This document shows positions 29,233 to 37,576 of a stretch of 37,576 nt of DNA, in pieces; the first letter of the stretch is position 1; each line of letters begins with the position of its first letter. The notes beneath the pieces are model-generated. The model was not told the DNA's origin. It saw only the letters and a program-made list of their open reading frames with translations, and ran no database searches. Source of the stretch: Candidatus Omnitrophota bacterium (GTDB lineage Bacteria; Ratteibacteria; UBA8468; MWAK01); assembly GCA_043797665.1 (NCBI GenBank), contig JAZDPL010000067.1, positions 1-37,576 on the forward strand, read 5' to 3'. A program made the position numbers and the translations under genes.

Positions 29233-32200
29233 TTACTCGGCTTTTACTTCAAAAGAGGTTTCATTGGTCTTGCCGGTAAGGATATCCCTGGCACGCAGAT
29301 TCCATTTTCCTGTCTTTTCATTGAAAGCAATAGAGAATTTTATTTCTTCTCTTCCGCCCTTGACCAGTACATTTCTCGTGAAGTGTGCAGCAATAATTCC
29401 ATCCGGACCAATAGCCTCCAGATGAACCGGGTGAAGGACATTCCCTTGAGCCGGAACACCATTAAGTGAGATACGTACTTTGAGTTCTTCTCCCTGTTTT
29501 AACGAGGGCGAAGAAGTTTCAATCTTTAGTTCGTTAACCCGATACGGCAATACCGCCAGAAACTTGGGTTGAAGGGTAGCCAGTTTCAGGGAAACCTCGT
29601 TGGCCTGACCGAGATATTTACCTTCTCCGATGTCATAGATATGAGCCGGGGAGGGTAAGCCAACCTTTACGGCAGATAGGCCATCTTCAAGGTTACGTTC
29701 CAGTAGTGGATAAAGCATTATACCCAGAACTTTTCCTTCACCGGTTCTCCAGCGCAGAGTACAGCTGTTGAAAAGTGGTTCCGAATTATCATCGGTAACC
29801 GGGAGGCCAGGTGTGACACCGGCAATGGTGAGCAGGTCTTTTACCAGTTGGTATCGGCTACCAAGGGAAACCTGGGCTGCCAGGTTAAAATTAAGGAGAA
29901 TTGCCCGGCCTTTACCAATTTGGTTTACGAAGAAGACCGGAGTTCCGGCAGCATTTCCGAGTACTTGAGCCTTTACCGGTTCGTATCCGGAATCGACGAT
30001 TGTTCCGCCGAAATTTACCCCAATTTCCCGATTATCAATCTGTCCGGTAATCTTGACCGGTACCGATTTTGGTTCGCCGTCCTTTCGGCGCCGGACACCA
30101 AACAGTTCATCTAACATACCGGGAGAGGCAGACCTGCCGTGTTCGTCGTAAATACCGGGTCGCATATCCGCCACAAGTAAGCCACCTTCCTCCACAAATT
30201 TCCGGAGGGCTTCTGCTTCTTTCAGGCTGATAGCCTGGATACAGGGCAGGATTAAGAGTTTGTATTTGCTCCTGTCCAGGATACCATCGGAAACCTGTTT
30301 TCCGGTCACATACTTAAACTCAAGTCCCAGTCCGTGAATGATATCAATGAACTCCTTGTGAGCAGACTGAATGGTATTGAACGGTCTGTTTTCGTCAAAA
30401 GTACTGGCTAACGCAGATTCAATAGAGTAATAAAGAGCAACCGGGTCGTTTTCCTGGGCACTATTAACAAAGAGGTCGCCCAGTCCGTTACGGATTGCCT
30501 CGAAGTTTGTGAGCATCTTTTGAACAATCGGGTGGAAGTTGTAGGCCGGGGCCAAAAAGCCGATATGTGGTTCATAAGGTCGCCATCCCTCTAATTGCCA
30601 CATAAAGTAGGCGATACCGTTCAGACCGGACATCACAGTATACCAGTACGACGCTGGCTGTGGACTTGTCCAGTTCCCGCTGAGAAATCCCTGGGGCTGC
30701 AAGGACCGGAGGGCATTATTGTAAATTCCGGCCTCGTCGCGGTAAGGCATCCACCAGTCAACCGAAGCCATAATCTGGTCGAAGTCAAGGTATTCATGGT
30801 CTGAAAGCCCTAAACCCTCAAATCCGCAGAGAGCCTCCGGGTCTTTCAACCGTTTCGGGAAAGTTTCTCGGTACTGCCGGGCAACCATCATCATATTTTC
30901 AGAGGCGAAGATCTGTCTATCGAACCAGCGGGGATACTTCTTCTGTTTAAACGCAGACTCTTCCCAGGCATCTCCTGTCTTGAGCAGGTTAATCTCCTCG
31001 AAAGACTTGAACTGTTCGTCCCATTCCCGATTAAGATTCTCGATTGTGCCGTACACCCGTTTCAGATAGGTTCGGTATGCCTGCTGGCACTCCGGGCTGT
31101 CATCCACATACTTGGTATTGATTTCATCTCCGAGGGAGTAGCCGAGAACGCCGTGTTTTCTGGTTGCCATGTGCGCATCTACCCGCCAGTTAATCTCTAA
31201 TTCCCGCAGGGTGTCCTTATTCCAGCTGGCAGGTTTTCCGTAGTAGCCGTCATATTTTTCCGGCGCTCTCTCGGGCGCATCCTTGGGCGTCCAGCCGGAT
31301 AGATGGGTAGTATAGGGAACGCACATCAGGTCGTTGGCCGCGCATTCCGGAAGATAATTGCCATCGTAGAAATCGCAGAGAACCGCGGTTACTCCAGCCG
31401 ATTTCATCTGCTGACAGGCGTAGGAGCCCAGGATACCCCGAATACCCCCGCCTCCCCAGACAATGAAATTGTACTTACCTTTGCCCCGACGCGGTACGGA
31501 AAAACGGGTCTCTTTCCGGTCAACCTCCTGGTTCCCTTCTAAAAGTGTTGCCCGGATGCGTACTAACTGGGTAATGTCAGGGTCTGCCTGGAAGGTGAAA
31601 GGAACAGGCTTACCGGTATCGGTAACCTTTGATTCCAAATACGCCACGATTCGGTCGTAGTTGTCCACAAATTCAATGCGTACTGAGTCACCAACCGCTG
31701 CCTGACGCAGGAGAACTTTTCCGGTCAATGTCTGTCCCCGTTCTACATAATCACTCTCTAATTCGATGGAGCCGATTCCTTTTTCGCTGGTTACCGTGAA
31801 ACTTCCGGACCCGAAGGTCTCACAGCCAGATTTGCTTTCAACAAAGATATCCAGACAATAAGTTCCGGTACCCAGGGAAGGCAGGGTGAATGAAAGTTCC
31901 TGCGGTTCAGCCGGAAGAAGAGTCCGTTCTATGAGTTTCAGGTCTCTGGTTATCCCGTCTTCACGACGGATGACCGGCCGGACTTTTACCGGTTTTGGTT
32001 CTTTTGCCTGATTAAGAAGCGTTATTTTGAACTCCTTGTCGGGTACTTCTTTGATACTCAGGTTCAGGCCGTCCGGTATCTTCTGAATAACGATATCGGG
32101 TCGTTTTTTCTCAGGGGCGGCCCATAGAATTGCTTTTGCAACCAGAGATAGAGCATAGTCGTAATTGGTAATCGTACGACCAAAATCGAACGCCACTCCT

Positions 32201-32928
32201 TCTGCTGTCTCGACCACTTTGGCGATGTTCACTCCCCGGCCAGAACCTATTTTGTAAGTCGAGATTCCGGTTTCGGCGAACTTACGGCTGTCCGCATACG
32301 CCCGGAAACTTTTCCAGGGGTCCATCCAGCTATTGATATAGTAATGCGGCTGCAACTTCTTTACCGCGGCCGCATAATCCAGAACCTTTTTCAATCCGGT
32401 ACTGGGGAAACCATTCAGTATAAACTCTTTCCCTTCCGGTAACACCGGCAGTCCTTGAGGAGGAAATGCCGGTACATCTATATTGTGGCCCTGTTCCTGT
32501 AAACTCTTGGTCGAAAAGTCCCAGCCTTCCGTTGGTGCATATCCAGGGTTTATAACCACCAATCCCCGTCCCTCTGCGGCGCCTTTAATGATTTTATAAC
32601 GTGTTTCCGGAAGAAGTCCCTTCGTATTTACATCGGATAAGAGGCAGATATCCCAATCACCCGCCAGTAATTCGGTCGCTTCCGGCCGATCGTAGTTGAT
32701 GGTACCAACAATCTCAAGGTCAATCCGCTGGCCAATCTCCATTACCCGGCGGACCGCGTTCGGTCCCGCCAGCACAATTACCTTAATCTTGCCTTTGGCG
32801 TAAGGCTTGCACCAGGCAACATGGGGCGTTTTGACTTCATCCGTAAAGTAGTTTTCTTTCTCCTGGGCTATCCCCATCCCGGTGATTCCGGAGATTAAAA
32901 ACAGACAGATAAAAAATAATCTCTTCAT
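29233..32928 (-). CDS. Secreted multidomain GH42-like protein 2
   Basis: 1231 aa; signal peptide; YSLGDE, YRTYLKRVYGTIENLNREW, LILP...LRKFVEEGGLLVAD; same architecture as 17195-20824. Confidence 0.7.
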   Translation of the reverse strand: MKRLFFICLFLISGITGMGIAQEKENYFTDEVKTPHVAWCKPYAKGKIKVIVLAGPNAVRRVMEIGQRIDLEIVGTINYDRPEATELLAGDWDICLLSDVNTKGLLPETRYKIIKGAAEGRGLVVINPGYAPTEGWDFSTKSLQEQGHNIDVPAFPPQGLPVLPEGKEFILNGFPSTGLKKVLDYAAAVKKLQPHYYINSWMDPWKSFRAYADSRKFAETGISTYKIGSGRGVNIAKVVETAEGVAFDFGRTITNYDYALSLVAKAILWAAPEKKRPDIVIQKIPDGLNLSIKEVPDKEFKITLLNQAKEPKPVKVRPVIRREDGITRDLKLIERTLLPAEPQELSFTLPSLGTGTYCLDIFVESKSGCETFGSGSFTVTSEKGIGSIELESDYVERGQTLTGKVLLRQAAVGDSVRIEFVDNYDRIVAYLESKVTDTGKPVPFTFQADPDITQLVRIRATLLEGNQEVDRKETRFSVPRRGKGKYNFIVWGGGGIRGILGSYACQQMKSAGVTAVLCDFYDGNYLPECAANDLMCVPYTTHLSGWTPKDAPERAPEKYDGYYGKPASWNKDTLRELEINWRVDAHMATRKHGVLGYSLGDEINTKYVDDSPECQQAYRTYLKRVYGTIENLNREWDEQFKSFEEINLLKTGDAWEESAFKQKKYPRWFDRQIFASENMMMVARQYRETFPKRLKDPEALCGFEGLGLSDHEYLDFDQIMASVDWWMPYRDEAGIYNNALRSLQPQGFLSGNWTSPQPASYWYTVMSGLNGIAYFMWQLEGWRPYEPHIGFLAPAYNFHPIVQKMLTNFEAIRNGLGDLFVNSAQENDPVALYYSIESALASTFDENRPFNTIQSAHKEFIDIIHGLGLEFKYVTGKQVSDGILDRSKYKLLILPCIQAISLKEAEALRKFVEEGGLLVADMRPGIYDEHGRSASPGMLDELFGVRRRKDGEPKSVPVKITGQIDNREIGVNFGGTIVDSGYEPVKAQVLGNAAGTPVFFVNQIGKGRAILLNFNLAAQVSLGSRYQLVKDLLTIAGVTPGLPVTDDNSEPLFNSCTLRWRTGEGKVLGIMLYPLLERNLEDGLSAVKVGLPSPAHIYDIGEGKYLGQANEVSLKLATLQPKFLAVLPYRVNELKIETSSPSLKQGEELKVRISLNGVPAQGNVLHPVHLEAIGPDGIIAAHFTRNVLVKGGREEIKFSIAFNEKTGKWNLRARDILTGKTNETSFEVKAE

Positions 32929-32937
32929 GGTCCTCCT

Positions 32938-34104
32938 CTATTTACTCTCCACCGGTATTTGTAATTCTTGCCAGAGTTCTGCTTCACGGATTTCGGTCAT
33001 AAGGGCCTCGATTCTCGTAAGAAGTCTTTGGGCATCGGTGGAAAATGTGCGCTGGTTATGGGTCTTAACAAACTGGTCAATCTCGGACTCAATTTGGGCG
33101 AGCCGCGTGGTAAATCTTTCGGATAGTTCTTTACTCCAATGACCACTCTGGTTTTTAACGCGGGTTTTCACTTCCTCCAGCATATCTTTGACTTGACTTA
33201 CAGATTCTGCCATTGCGTGGCCATAGTCGGTATAGAGAAATTCCCCATTCTTCCCCTGAAAACGAAGAATACTGCTGCCCATTACCGGAGAGATCTTTTC
33301 GGCAATGAGTTCCTCTATCCGGGAAAAATTATCGGCAAAGTATAAAAATCCGAACTTTTCCGGTTCTTTATAATTACCACCCGGTGCCCAACTGGAATAC
33401 TCAAAAGTTTCACTATCGTATAGACTGCTGCGTGCCCCTTCCTTCAGCGTCCGGCAAAACCGTACAATTTGAAACGACCACAGGTCTCCTGAAAAAGGAG
33501 TATGTGTTTCGTCCAAGTCTGAAAAAGGGATTAATAGTTCTATATACCAGGCATCCTTACCGACCGAAGAACAGGAATGCCACCCGGCTTTAAAACCCCA
33601 TTTATCATCCACGATGAAATTATCGTATCGGTATTTCCAGCAGGCATCGCGCCGGGTGTTAAGGCTGTTTGTGGAAAGGACATAATAACATTTCCGGGTA
33701 GAACCCGGTTCCAGATAGATTTCAACGCTGTCGTCATCCCAGACAGGTCCGTCGTAGGTTTTGACCGTAGCAATCAGCCGTTCCGGGTGCGGCTCCTGGA
33801 GTGTTATCCCCAGATAGAGATTCTTTTCGTCATAACATACCTGAAAAGATGTCTGCCGACTGGCTAAGTTATGTTCCATATCCGGCTTGCCATAGGAATA
33901 GAGTCCGGTGAGGAAATTGGTACCTACCGGCAGGTCTTTCCAGCAGGCATCATTTAGGACACCGTCAATCTTTGGCGGCACGTTGCAACGGCAGACTTCA
34001 TATAGCAATACCTCATTGCGCTGAAGTTCACCAGCCCGAAGAGGCACTACTCCAACCATTATGACCAAGAAATTTACCAGGAAGATAATTCGCCACGGTT
34101 GCAT
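32938..34104 (-). CDS. Secreted CBM9/DOMON-like protein with helical tail (c)
   Basis: Signal peptide from ATG 34104; PPKIDGVLNDACW, DDSVEIYLEP, WYIELLIPF. Confidence 0.78.
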   Translation of the reverse strand: MQPWRIIFLVNFLVIMVGVVPLRAGELQRNEVLLYEVCRCNVPPKIDGVLNDACWKDLPVGTNFLTGLYSYGKPDMEHNLASRQTSFQVCYDEKNLYLGITLQEPHPERLIATVKTYDGPVWDDDSVEIYLEPGSTRKCYYVLSTNSLNTRRDACWKYRYDNFIVDDKWGFKAGWHSCSSVGKDAWYIELLIPFSDLDETHTPFSGDLWSFQIVRFCRTLKEGARSSLYDSETFEYSSWAPGGNYKEPEKFGFLYFADNFSRIEELIAEKISPVMGSSILRFQGKNGEFLYTDYGHAMAESVSQVKDMLEEVKTRVKNQSGHWSKELSERFTTRLAQIESEIDQFVKTHNQRTFSTDAQRLLTRIEALMTEIREAELWQELQIPVESK

Positions 34105-34134
34105 AATCTTTCTTTCAATAAACAAATTTAACCA

Positions 34135-34165
34135 TTTTGATTTTTGATATTTGATTTTTGGTATT
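34135..34165. repeat. Degenerate 7-mer tandem repeat
   Basis: TTTTGAT TTTTGAT ATTTGAT TTTTGGT ATT. Confidence 0.55.
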
Positions 34166-34194
34166 CTATAGCCAATCTGTCTATCTCTCTGAAA

Positions 34195-34218
34195 GTGCGA
34201 CCCTTTTAGGGTCGCTAC
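34195..34218 (-). repeat. GTAG-type REP-like palindrome
   Basis: Minus strand reads GTA-GCGACCC-taaaa-GGGTCGC-AC, a 7-bp stem. Confidence 0.55.
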
Positions 34219-34313
34219 CCAAAGTAAAGGAATTTTCCTGAAACAAGCCTGCCCCAGTATGTACCAGGCCGGGGTTCAGGGTATCGAACCCGCGGGCGTC
34301 ATGAGTGGCTCCC

Positions 34314-35183
34314 CTACTTAAGGTTTTTGATAAGGTCATCCAACTCTTTTTGCTGTTCACCTGATTTAGACGGATTTGTCTCCTCGTAGAGTTTCTTGAT
34401 ATCCACATGGGTAAGCGCTTCTCCTAATATGAACGCTTCTCCAATTTCGCCCTGGAATATGGCCGCACCTTTGCCATTGCAGAGGTTGGAGCCCACCGTA
34501 ACCGGAACCGGTTCCTTTCTCATGGTGGTAAATGGTGTTTGGACCGTGTTTGTCAATTGTCCATTGTTATAGAAACGGACTTCTTTGCCGTCAAAGGTAA
34601 CCGCCAGAAACTGCCAGGTACCGATTGGAATAGGGCCTCCGCCGGTGCTAATCCAGGTCTTATCGGGTATCTCTTCCTTGGGTTTCTCACCAGTTTCGGT
34701 CTTCCCGAAGAGTTGGAGCCGGGAATTCTGAGCCTGGGTTACTCCGAAATCAAAACAACGTTCGCTCGGACCGGCCCAGTCGTTTTTGGAGATAAGGTTG
34801 ATATTGGCAGGAGGTTTCTCAATCCGGAACCAGGCAGCCAAAGTAAATTTGTCTGTCAGGTGAATCCTACTTTCGGTACTTCCGGCCGATTCCTCCTCTT
34901 GAAGATAGGTGGTCTCGCCGTCAAAATGAAGGGCTTTCTTGCTGTCCCGGGGGACTACTTGCATCGGTTCCGGAGACATTACCTCAAGGCCAATACCGTT
35001 CGGAGAAGAATCATCAAGTACATCTCCCGGGGAAACAGAGTCACCAATAGGTTCACCGCCATTTTTCGTCTCAAACTTCCACCAGGCTTTAATATCCTTG
35101 CCGTCAAGTACGCCGGCATTCAATATCTGTGTCCAGTAAACCAAGGCTATCGCCATTCCCGCATACAAAAATTTTCTTCGCAT
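34314..35183 (-). CDS. Secreted LamG/concanavalin A-like lectin domain protein
   Basis: Signal peptide; AWWKFE, DSSPNG, ALHFDG, FTLAAW, WQFLAVTFDG, FQGEIGE. Confidence 0.85.
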   Translation of the reverse strand: MRRKFLYAGMAIALVYWTQILNAGVLDGKDIKAWWKFETKNGGEPIGDSVSPGDVLDDSSPNGIGLEVMSPEPMQVVPRDSKKALHFDGETTYLQEEESAGSTESRIHLTDKFTLAAWFRIEKPPANINLISKNDWAGPSERCFDFGVTQAQNSRLQLFGKTETGEKPKEEIPDKTWISTGGGPIPIGTWQFLAVTFDGKEVRFYNNGQLTNTVQTPFTTMRKEPVPVTVGSNLCNGKGAAIFQGEIGEAFILGEALTHVDIKKLYEETNPSKSGEQQKELDDLIKNLK

Positions 35184-35228: not shown

Positions 35229-35990
35229 TCAAAATGGATACGGAGCCGGATAGGGGGCAGCTATGTTCGGTAAACCTGCTCCGGGAATCTGTCCGGCCGG
35301 CAGCCATTCTACATGTCCATCTAAAAAAAGAAAGTTTGCTCCATTGGTGTGTTTGGTGTCCACCGGACCATAGGTGGAGACTCCATAAAGGCCATCATTT
35401 ACCCAAGGAGGAGATGGTTCATACCTACTGATAGAATCGGCAAAGAGAAAACGCCGGGAAGAGTTGGTGTAAGTTCTGTAGTTTGAATACTTCGGTGCTC
35501 CGGGTATACCGGTTATTAAATCATTCCCGTTTTCATCGAATTGCAGGCGGTTGTTAAGGCCGTAACTGGTGGTCCATTCCAGGTTTCTTTTGGCAGAGGG
35601 GCATTTAAATATATGCATCCGGTAACAGGCGTAGTTAAACCCGGAGTAATAGTCTGCCGGATTAGTATACGTTCCAGACCAACCCATGTAAGGTCCATAC
35701 AGAAATATGAAGAGAGAGTTCCACTGGTAATTAGACCCTCCGTAAATATTGGTCCAGTACGTCATAGCCTGGGGCATGAAGTAATCTTCGTTGTCGTCAG
35801 CGTACATGTTACTTATCAGGTTTATCTGTTTCAGATTACTCATGCAACTTGCCTGCCTGGCTTTTTCCCTTGCCTGGCTGAGCGCCGGCAAAAGCATCGC
35901 CGCCAGGATGGCGATGATGGCGATGACCACCAAAAGTTCAATCAGGGTGAACCCATGTCGGGGAGGGCGTGATAAAATCTTGTTACACAT
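35229..35990 (-). CDS. Prepilin-type N-methylation / DUF1559 protein with H-X9-DG C-terminal motif
   Basis: [33 protein letters not shown]...[34 protein letters not shown]. Confidence 0.93.
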
Positions 35991-36026
35991 ATGACACCTC
36001 CAAATTTGAAGTTCTCAAAAGGGAAG

Positions 36027-36055
36027 AAAAAGGGAAGAGAGCCACCGGCTCTCCT
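36027..36055 (-). terminator. Intrinsic terminator-like hairpin in the leader of the glycan locus
   Basis: Minus strand AGGAGAGCC-ggt-GGCTCTCTT followed by CCCTTTTT. Confidence 0.5.
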
Positions 36056-36171
36056 GAAAAAAAGATGAAAGAACGGACAGAATGAAAACAAGTAAAATCA
36101 CTGGCTTGCTTTCGCTTGAGCGATTTCAGGGCTCTGCTCAAGCAAGCCAATTTTCCCTGGGAGGAAAAACG

Positions 36172-37254
36172 ATGGAGAACGTGAAAACTTTTATCGGGAT
36201 TGACTTGCATAAGGACTCTCTCACCTGGAGTGCCAGAAACAGCGCCGGAGAAGAGATTGGGATAGGGAAAATTCCTACTAAGTGTCGGGAGAAAATCGTC
36301 GGTTTCATTCAGGATTGGCCCAGACCGGTCAGTGTATCTTTTGAAGCGGTCGGTTTCTACCGTTGGCTCTGGCTCCTGTTGGAACCACACGTAGATTCTC
36401 TTTGCCTGGCTGATGCAGGAAGACTCAGGGCTATGGCTGACCGGAATGTCAAGACTGACTTTAAGGATGCTCGTCTCATCAGTAAAGTTTTGTGGCGTGG
36501 AGAAATTCCCACAAGTTTTGTCGTGGGAGAACCCTTCTACACTCTCCGGCAGCAGCTCCGTCACCGCCATGACCTGTCCAGACGTGCTGCCCGCACCAAG
36601 TCCAGCATGAAACGGATTTGTCTTCGGGCCAATTTGCCTGGCCCTAAGGCACTCATCGGAGCCAGAGCGGTCGCTTACTTTGACGCCTATGGGAATCGTC
36701 TCCACCCCATGGACAGAGAACGTTGGCTTGACCTGACCGACCAACTTCTCTTGTTGGAAAGACAACTGGCCGGGACCGACCGGAACCTCTTCCTTAGGAT
36801 TGAAAGTCTTCCTGAAATTTGTCAGGATATCGATAGGTTGGCTACTGCCCCTGGGGTTGGAGTCTTGACTGCCGCTACCGTGCTGATGGAGACAGGAGGG
36901 CTCTCTCGGTTTACCCATCCGGAACAGTTGGCCTGTTACAGTGGCCTTACCACCAGAACCTTCCAGTCGGCTGATACTGTCCGTCACGGCCATATCTCCA
37001 AGGCTGGTCCTCCTAATCTGCGCTGGGTATTGCAACAGGCAAGTTGGTGTGCGATTAGAACCAACCCCTATGTAAGAGGTATCCATAACAGAATCAGTAG
37101 AAGGGCCGGCTCTAAAAAGGCCGCCACCGCTATCGCCAGAAGACTTTTGATCTGGTTGTGGGCAATGCATACCAAACAAACGGAATGGAAGAAAGAAGCG
37201 GATAAATCTCTGTCTCCTGCTTACTTGAAGGAATATTCTTTGGCAGAAGCATAA
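36172..37254 (+). CDS. IS110-family transposase/recombinase
   Basis: 360 aa from ATG 36172 (GGGAGG RBS); IGIDLHK, FEAVG, KTDFKDA (DEDD); PGVG, YSGL...QSA...HISKAG..NLRWVL C-terminal domain. Confidence 0.95.
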   Translation: MENVKTFIGIDLHKDSLTWSARNSAGEEIGIGKIPTKCREKIVGFIQDWPRPVSVSFEAVGFYRWLWLLLEPHVDSLCLADAGRLRAMADRNVKTDFKDARLISKVLWRGEIPTSFVVGEPFYTLRQQLRHRHDLSRRAARTKSSMKRICLRANLPGPKALIGARAVAYFDAYGNRLHPMDRERWLDLTDQLLLLERQLAGTDRNLFLRIESLPEICQDIDRLATAPGVGVLTAATVLMETGGLSRFTHPEQLACYSGLTTRTFQSADTVRHGHISKAGPPNLRWVLQQASWCAIRTNPYVRGIHNRISRRAGSKKAATAIARRLLIWLWAMHTKQTEWKKEADKSLSPAYLKEYSLAEA

Positions 37255-37282
37255 AGTATCTTTTTCATAAAAACTATCACTA

Positions 37283-37487
37283 TTTTGGCACGACCTTAAA
37301 GGTAAGACGGGGAGCCGGTGACCGCGTGCTTCCTTTGAAGGATTACCCGACCGGGTTTCACCTTGGTAGCGTGAAGGCGGCCCGGCCCCCGTGTACTTGT
37401 GCTCAGGCGGCATTTGACCGCGAATAGATGAAGACAACCCTTGAGGTTGAACATCTGAGAATATCCTTTTATAGGGTTGTGCCAAAA
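37283..37487 (+). ncRNA. Putative bridge/seek RNA of the IS110 element
   Basis: 16-bp closing stem with two G-U pairs enclosing two multibranch domains; one loop carries ATAGATGAA, identical to 37568-37576. Confidence 0.65.
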
Positions 37488-37576
37488 AAGAAAAGGAGTT
37501 TTCCATGTGATTAATTAATCGGTATTAAAAACCCTGTCAAGAGGGGGAAATCCCTGTCCTCACCGACATAGATGAA

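Follow-up and report, generated by a model that had tools for sequence, protein, structure and literature searches.

Elements of the IS1111 group are defined by sub-terminal inverted repeats, usually of 11 to 13 bp, and by terminal extensions of 7 bp and 3 bp (PMC11187229). The accessible text of that report describes ISEc11, ISPa11, and ISKpn4 as seekRNA or bridge RNA elements with a DEDD recombinase, a long downstream noncoding region, and two target matches that overlap on the target, the top-strand match lying 5′ of the bottom-strand match. The bridge RNA of IS621 carries four guides (LTG, RTG, LDG, and RDG) around a 2-nt core, and donor guides in a multiloop have already been reported for many IS1111 members, as far as the accessible text goes (PMC11208160; bioRxiv 10.1101/2024.01.24.577089). 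The nearest published precedent for what we describe, going by the part of the report accessible, is hed of IS900, also in the IS110 family: a complementary-strand ORF that spans the element and relies on host translation signals (PMC8141618).

The stretch analyzed here in its whole length of 37,576 nucleotides (the window) ends in an intact IS1111-type element, one of two copies in the genome (Table 1). It shares with ISEc11, ISPa11, and ISKpn4 all the features named above; unlike them, in the published text accessible, its target is a coding motif of a multigene family, its antisense frame is open, its left end rebuilds the start of the host gene, and both donor guides can be read. The four guides around a 2-nt core recall IS621, whereas the RNA in the right end, the reversed guide order, the long repeats, and the donor guides in a multiloop all depart from the IS110 group (IS621 type), where a long left end carries the bridge RNA, the sub-terminal inverted repeats are short, and the donor loop is a simple internal one. 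We think there is a good chance that this is a translation-transparent element guided to prepilin cleavage sites, with a stop/restart relay in the window copy.

Table 1. Features of the element and its surroundings, in window coordinates
Feature	Position	Strand	Remark
IS1111-type element, 1625 bp	35948..37572	+	antisense insertion in DUF1559 prepilin gene
Left terminal extension: core TG, then AA and CCC	35948..35954	+	on - strand gives Gly(-1) and most of host Phe(+1)
Left sub-terminal inverted repeat	35955..35966	+	11/12 match to right repeat
Right sub-terminal inverted repeat	37558..37569	+	11/12 match to left repeat
Core T + target-derived GAA (host Phe codon on -)	37573..37576	+	G/A split at junction position 7
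Shine-Dalgarno GGAGG (36001-35997), ATG (35990), 13-residue basic leader ending R-H-G	35952..36001	-	element-supplied
Rebuilt DUF1559 prepilin ORF, 253 aa	35229..35990	-	PF07963 + PF07596; host part intact, 240 codons
IS110-family recombinase, 360 aa (longer start at 36082 possible)	36172..37254	+	PF01548 + PF02371
Predicted bridge RNA; closing stem 37283-98/37472-87	37283..37487	+	fold + homologue alignment
Target-binding domain	37307..37392	+	outer stems 37307-18/37382-92 and 37322-25/37377-80; 12 x 12 internal loop; inner stem 37338-41/37361-64; apical hairpin 37345-56
Right target guide TCCTTTG, top-strand match	37331..37337	+	small residue then Phe in host sense
Left target guide TAGCGTGAA, bottom-strand match	37367..37375	+	antisense of Phe-Thr-Leu codons
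Probable right donor guide GTGCTCA	37399..37405	+	5/7 match to left end; weak
Donor-binding module inner stem	37407..37421	+	98.7% of cells paired
Left donor guide ATAGATGA(A)	37424..37432	+	ninth position unconstrained (per-position table)
3′ hairpin CAACC/GGTTG	37435..37449	+	invariant in 3 close homologues; outside RNAalifold consensus of 61
Host frame, 20 codons into right end, then stop	37511..37573	-	frame reading; C61 ORF
507-codon antisense ORF	35983..37506	-	codon-aligned with transposase; begins 4 nt past host-frame stop; TAA overlaps new prepilin start
Terminator-like hairpin	36035..36055	-	inside antisense ORF, just upstream of rebuilt start; pattern scan, 4 vs 1.8 +/- 1.3 in shuffles
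Three closely spaced co-directional genes (LamG, CBM9-like, GH42-like)	29233..35183	-	downstream of prepilin gene; co-transcription inferred

The ends can be placed from the assembly, in which the window is one entire contig (C43), ended by a fork in the graph. After position 37576 the contig forks into C60 and C61, both of which begin with its last 141 bases and then diverge; there are thus at least two copies of the element, and its right end lies at the window's end. On the left, C87 is identical to the window over exactly 135 bp from 35947 and divergent before, which together with the partner of the sub-terminal inverted repeat sets the left end at 35948. Among relatives, junction position 7 is G in 65 of 67 left junctions and split between G (31) and A (31) in 62 right junctions, and positions 8 to 9 are AA without exception on the left and variable on the right. 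By this contrast, the window's final three bases come from the target, and the predicted circle joins 37572 to 35948. The initial annotation had taken a partial repeat at 36063-69 for the left end, and the circle junction that it predicted was wrong for this reason. The end-to-end joint is absent from four contig sets, of a kind that cannot show that a circle is absent. Among the sequencing runs, none of which contains half the words, one DNA contig (X1 record 6) covers 35887-37576 with 54 differences.

By all features compared, the element belongs to the IS1111 group: the inverted repeats are 11/12 alike, the extensions are 7 bp on the left (35948-54) and 3 bp on the right (37570-72) with the TG core counted left and no target duplication, the noncoding stretch is longer downstream of the transposase (318 bp, against 224 bp on the left), the top-strand guide (37331-37) lies 5′ of the bottom-strand guide (37367-75), and the transposase joins a DEDD domain (PF01548) to PF02371. 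Residues D11, E58, D96, D99, and S266, which we take to be catalytic, are invariant in an alignment of the recombinase's 18 closest proteins.

The initial annotation proposed a bridge RNA of the IS110-family recombinase on the + strand. That proposal is borne out by guides that covary with the flanks in homologues, and the motifs it named were all found where it had put them, among them the closing stem with its two G-U pairs. The homologues came from 40 related genomes and, in addition, from 80 loci in metagenomes and 30 in genomes; their right ends are co-linear with the RNA in the alignment. Compared with shuffled sequence, the region folds with a z of -5.10 on the + strand and -5.05 on the - strand, nearly equal, so that folding alone does not choose a strand. 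In an alignment of 61 of 73 rows (A4; 12 near-duplicate or long-insertion rows omitted), RNAalifold gave the closing stem and, in the target domain, one internal loop of symmetrical form; a second inner stem lies in the multiloop. These consensus helices are 93.1% paired, 22 of 24 pairs are changed on both sides, and 0 of 500 shuffles did as well; the structure was derived from the same alignment, which favors it over slid controls. The closing stem is paired in 87.5% of cells in three close homologues. An Rfam search of the RNA gave five weak chance matches. The one RNA run, available as contigs, contained 7% of the words, had no listed piece over the RNA region, and speaks neither for nor against expression.

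A more branched RNA, forming a distinct programmable class, was also proposed, with domain 1 drawn as a multiloop of three hairpins. The minimum-energy fold of the window is indeed branched, and TTCAC/GTGAA and CTCAG/CTGAG are unbroken in three close homologues, as an extra helix specific to the clade might be; these three do not distinguish the branched from the internal-loop structure. The centroid fold, like the 61-row consensus, instead has the single symmetrical loop, which is the target-binding loop. Of the helices drawn earlier, the outer domain-1 stems, a hairpin at the position of ACCC/GGGT, and the GCGG/CCGC stem are backed by homologues. TCCTT/AAGGA, TTCAC/GTGAA, and CTCAG/CTGAG are not: together they are 42.7% paired in the 61 homologues against 42.0% when shuffled, scored with a one-column shift allowed for the 5′ target strand, in which 8 rows, the window among them, are misplaced by a column. 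TCCTT/AAGGA, with a loop of just 2 nt, cannot fold as drawn; the target guides coincide with two arms of the rejected hairpins and would be buried by the extra helices; and the literature already describes, in the text accessible, a multiloop donor guide for many IS1111 orthologues (PMC11208160). A separate branched class is thus very improbable. Judged by the alignment, the predicted fold is the ordinary, known IS1111 architecture, on an unusual element.

Both modules of this RNA are ordered alike: right guide, inner stem, G-N, left guide. Pairing between flank and RNA was compared with 5000 shuffles, in rows that include kin and so are not independent. Rows were dropped for a different RNA layout (L009, L025, L026), distance (L013-15), a long insertion (L135), a 1-nt insertion (L130), or mis-calling (L097 and the left end of L121). 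No shuffle reached the observed pairing for the left target guide (347/420 against 294 +/- 5, 60 loci), the right target guide (256/434 against 209 +/- 6, 62 loci), or the left donor guide (327/330 against 307.5 +/- 2.3, 66 loci); one did for the right donor guide (317/469 against 307 +/- 2.4, 67 loci). Cross-controls were null. In retargeted members, both target guides, the flank, and the core are altered together. The initial reading of 37424-32 as a donor guide therefore stands, as the left donor guide covarying with the element's right end; its identity with 37568-76 holds as well, except that the last three letters at the window's end come from the target. An earlier placement of the right target guide at 37355-63 was replaced after alignment by 37331-37. 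A shifted register for this guide, which some members use, was not above chance overall (208 against 198 shuffled), and pairing beyond position 12 was unconvincing (77 against 63 +/- 6; reached by 59 of 3000 shuffles).

As read from sequence, the guides aim, antisense, at the G/A/S-F-T-L cleavage site of the large DUF1559 prepilin family, of which the genome holds 59 cleavage-site motifs. Both in the window and on C87, the element lies directly against FTLIELL of an intact DUF1559 prepilin gene; in the window the insertion is at the cleavage site, 15 codons into the host ORF, and the C61 flank holds the displaced host leader as a 37-aa ORF overlapping an upstream regulator-like gene. A prepilin junction lies upstream in 78 of the 114 loci that have an N-terminus, a count that includes duplicates and loci too short to judge; loci with names are mostly from Planctomycetota and Gemmatimonadota. 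The window's guides are unspecific alone, with 194 non-prepilin sites scoring 7 to 8 of 8 against 3 prepilin sites, and a related element on C34 is found in a gene other than a prepilin; the prepilin bias may therefore owe something to the survival of harmless insertions. Since the rebuilt junction is again a target, elements stack: C60, C50, and L037 carry the right end of one element on the left end of another, as do four complete loci examined. The Moraxella pilin invertase Piv presumably offers a parallel, as an IS110-family recombinase at type IV pilin genes, although Piv is a domesticated invertase and here a mobile element sits in prepilin-like genes.

What the left end brings is a new beginning for the host gene. 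On the minus strand its ATG follows GGAGG by 6 nt, and the leader is in frame with the mature prepilin gene. In 67 distinct left ends inserted in prepilin genes, the supplied leader ends in G (65) or A (2), and its final 12 residues have a net charge of +2.6, against 0.03 and 0.5 in the other frames; native leaders end in G, A, or S in 58 of 59 cases. The prepilin peptidase is suited by G, A, or S at -1 and a basic leader. His(-2) of the supplied leader is forced by the ATG of the inverted repeat. At C39 and C79, intact prepilin genes begin with left-end remnants that lack a transposase. Such remnants, or look-alike leaders (R-H-G or R-H-A before FTLIELL), were seen ahead of prepilin genes at C39 11937, C79 97922, and C50 38033 and on C72, C46, C30, and C78, and part of the host leaders may be footprints left by old elements.

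The second unusual property is the open frame opposite the transposase. TTA, CTA, and TCA, the codons that give stops on the opposite strand, number 0 in the 360 codons of the window's transposase; host ORFs average 9.6 per 360, and 14 of 858 have none. They are absent from 63 of 64 transposases with an F-T guide and from one of nine with another guide (8 identical proteins and 3 with internal stops were dropped, and 14 rows without a guide call, 11 lacking such codons and 3 having them, stand apart). L011, at 30% GC, has 0 in 376, and 11 distant IS110 matches outside the clade, a count in which two ORFs are listed twice, have 7 to 33 each. Among complete elements of the Planctomycete type, 40 of 45 (L117 and L121 set aside), in 31 different lengths, keep the host frame (a multiple of 3) and have no stop between the host leader and the mature protein. 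The expectation with base-shuffled noncoding ends is 0.41. In a separate analysis the nearest ATG was taken as the transposase start, so the "noncoding" part there may hold a few codons. The five failures comprise four frame breaks and one late stop. By sequence comparison, retargeted relatives have lost the open frame: 0 of 10 are in frame and stop-free, and most keep their own outward ATG. Fisher's P of 6e-9 for this contrast overstates it, as on a quick, unfinished tree the retargeted rows fall into two nested groups and thus give only two independent control events; in one group, just one of three members has a stop. Eleven retargeted loci (L044, L048, L052, L056, L064, L068, L070, L073, L090, L118, and L134) are aimed at another Planctomycete N-terminal motif, R-R-W-x-F-S-L-R-x-L-L.

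One could read the antisense ORF as a functional protein of the element, expressed from host signals as with hed, and the rebuilt leader as a separate, simpler trait that restores the gene. The ORF has 507 codons and an ATG, and IS900, of the same family, has an antisense ORF that spans the element, according to the accessible text (PMC8141618). Here, too, the ORF spans the element, but it has its own start (ATG 37506) and the insertion is not at initiation signals. A Pfam search of it gave no match, and in 40 of 45 relatives the frame is fused to both host parts and is lost on retargeting. Between close relatives, fourfold sites differ at 58 to 67%, and this filler frame is 44 to 51% identical where the transposases share 77 to 83%; with synonymous sites near saturation, what is kept is the openness of the frame and not its protein sequence. 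A functional antisense protein therefore seems unlikely to us.

A translation-transparent insertion agrees better with these comparisons. We base the following scheme on the ends, guides, target, open frame, overlap of stop and start, and loss on retargeting, which sequence comparison establishes. The first module of the bridge RNA would pick the target and the second the element's own joined ends, and the element would insert antisense around the TG core, between host leader and mature protein. Ribosomes from the host start would run 20 codons into the right end, stop, and restart 4 nt on to translate the 507-codon filler; its stop overlaps the left-end ATG led by the Shine-Dalgarno sequence, where a new basic leader with Gly as its last residue would begin, joined to the undamaged mature prepilin. 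A message translated throughout would be spared premature termination, and the downstream genes polarity; the terminator-like hairpin and the three genes downstream offer a motive for keeping it translated. Thus the interrupted gene and its neighbors could probably still be expressed, the insertion likely being non-polar. Expression, translation, coupling, anti-polarity, and leader processing are what we infer from this arrangement.

The overlap of a stop and a start is the usual sign of translational coupling. Of 9 distinct elements that have a start of their own, 8 place the filler stop 1 to 14 nt past that ATG. Window-subgroup elements are in frame end to end in 0 of 5 cases, and in L008 and L011 the host leader runs straight through to the filler stop. 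The first hand-over, the weakest step of the relay, is loose in relatives: 4 nt in two, an overlap of 7 to 29 nt in three, and 51 and 320 nt in two. Perhaps only the left-end start and leader matter, served by an element promoter or read-through, and the long frame of the relay subgroup is left over from an ancestor that was read through. The strong left-end Shine-Dalgarno sequence and ATG would suit this, as would the absence of an evident Shine-Dalgarno sequence at the ATG at 37506, the solo left-end remnants still heading intact genes at C39 and C79, and the retargeted relatives with their own ATG but no open frame. Against it, four close-clade and four AT-rich transposases have 0 stops with fourfold sites near saturation, and an overlap of filler stop and new ATG is kept in 8 of 9 elements despite unlike left ends. 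A scan for outward promoters found 1 site against 1.3 expected. We doubt that the frame is such a relic and prefer the relay.

A wider reading seems to us evenly poised. The clade would be widespread and near-invisible at the protein level without splicing: in the Planctomycete type, a 1.4- to 1.7-kb element would become a leader of 460 to 560 residues cut by the host peptidase, and here a relay would lead to a rebuilt leader. The opposite strand would police the transposase codons, and solo left ends would become permanent new host 5′ ends. Inteins and IStrons are also mobile elements that sit inside genes at little cost; unlike them, this element has no evident splicing machinery, and translation re-initiation or cleavage of the host leader would make it harmless. 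In contrast to IS900 as described in the text accessible, which targets translation starts and whose hed is read as the element's own gene, the filler would return ribosomes to a host gene rebuilt at a protease site (PMC8141618).

The comparison of open frames across the clade and the stop/restart relay are new here. In the literature accessible, a translation-transparent IS110/IS1111 design (prepilin, DUF1559, antisense frame, coupling) was not found; supplementary target tables of the bridge RNA papers may list the target, and a term search of the accessible part of bioRxiv 10.64898/2026.08.14.744561 gave no hits. Such elements would add a route for mobile DNA into coding genes besides introns and inteins and would explain a many-copy coding motif as a safe harbor for RNA-guided elements. 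They may also be relevant to the many DUF1559 genes in PVC-type bacteria, as these elements replace the genes' 5′ ends. Removal of very long leaders by prepilin peptidase, and translation through the element preventing polarity, are testable. As tools, about 70 natural bridge RNAs of the IS1111 group, in which all four guides have been located, are at hand together with natural retargeting events, and the relay suggests a design for non-polar insertion into operons.

Several further arrangements were seen. A second IS1111-type element (C34 1966-3627, which is L026; also L009 and L025), 37% identical, shares the donor guide and has a longer RNA laid out otherwise; its C34 copy lies inside the non-prepilin gene, presumably ThuA-like by its motif, with the antisense frame still open. 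The right end of L009 carries a tandem duplication of about 90 bp with promoter-like sequence pointing outward. In five AT-rich loci (L007, L008, L010, L011, and L012), the target-binding loop overlaps the last transposase codons, and in four the stop codon lies within the left target guide. A long left-end hairpin in the window (36098-36156) has an 82% similar copy in the left end of the other element type (C60 172-215). Most Planctomycete-type left ends, and those of L055 and L059, carry across a likely transposase start codon a second terminal repeat in inverted orientation that could fold back on read-through transcripts. The right flanks of L130 and L131 hold short miniature elements with the same inverted repeats, stacked next to the full element.
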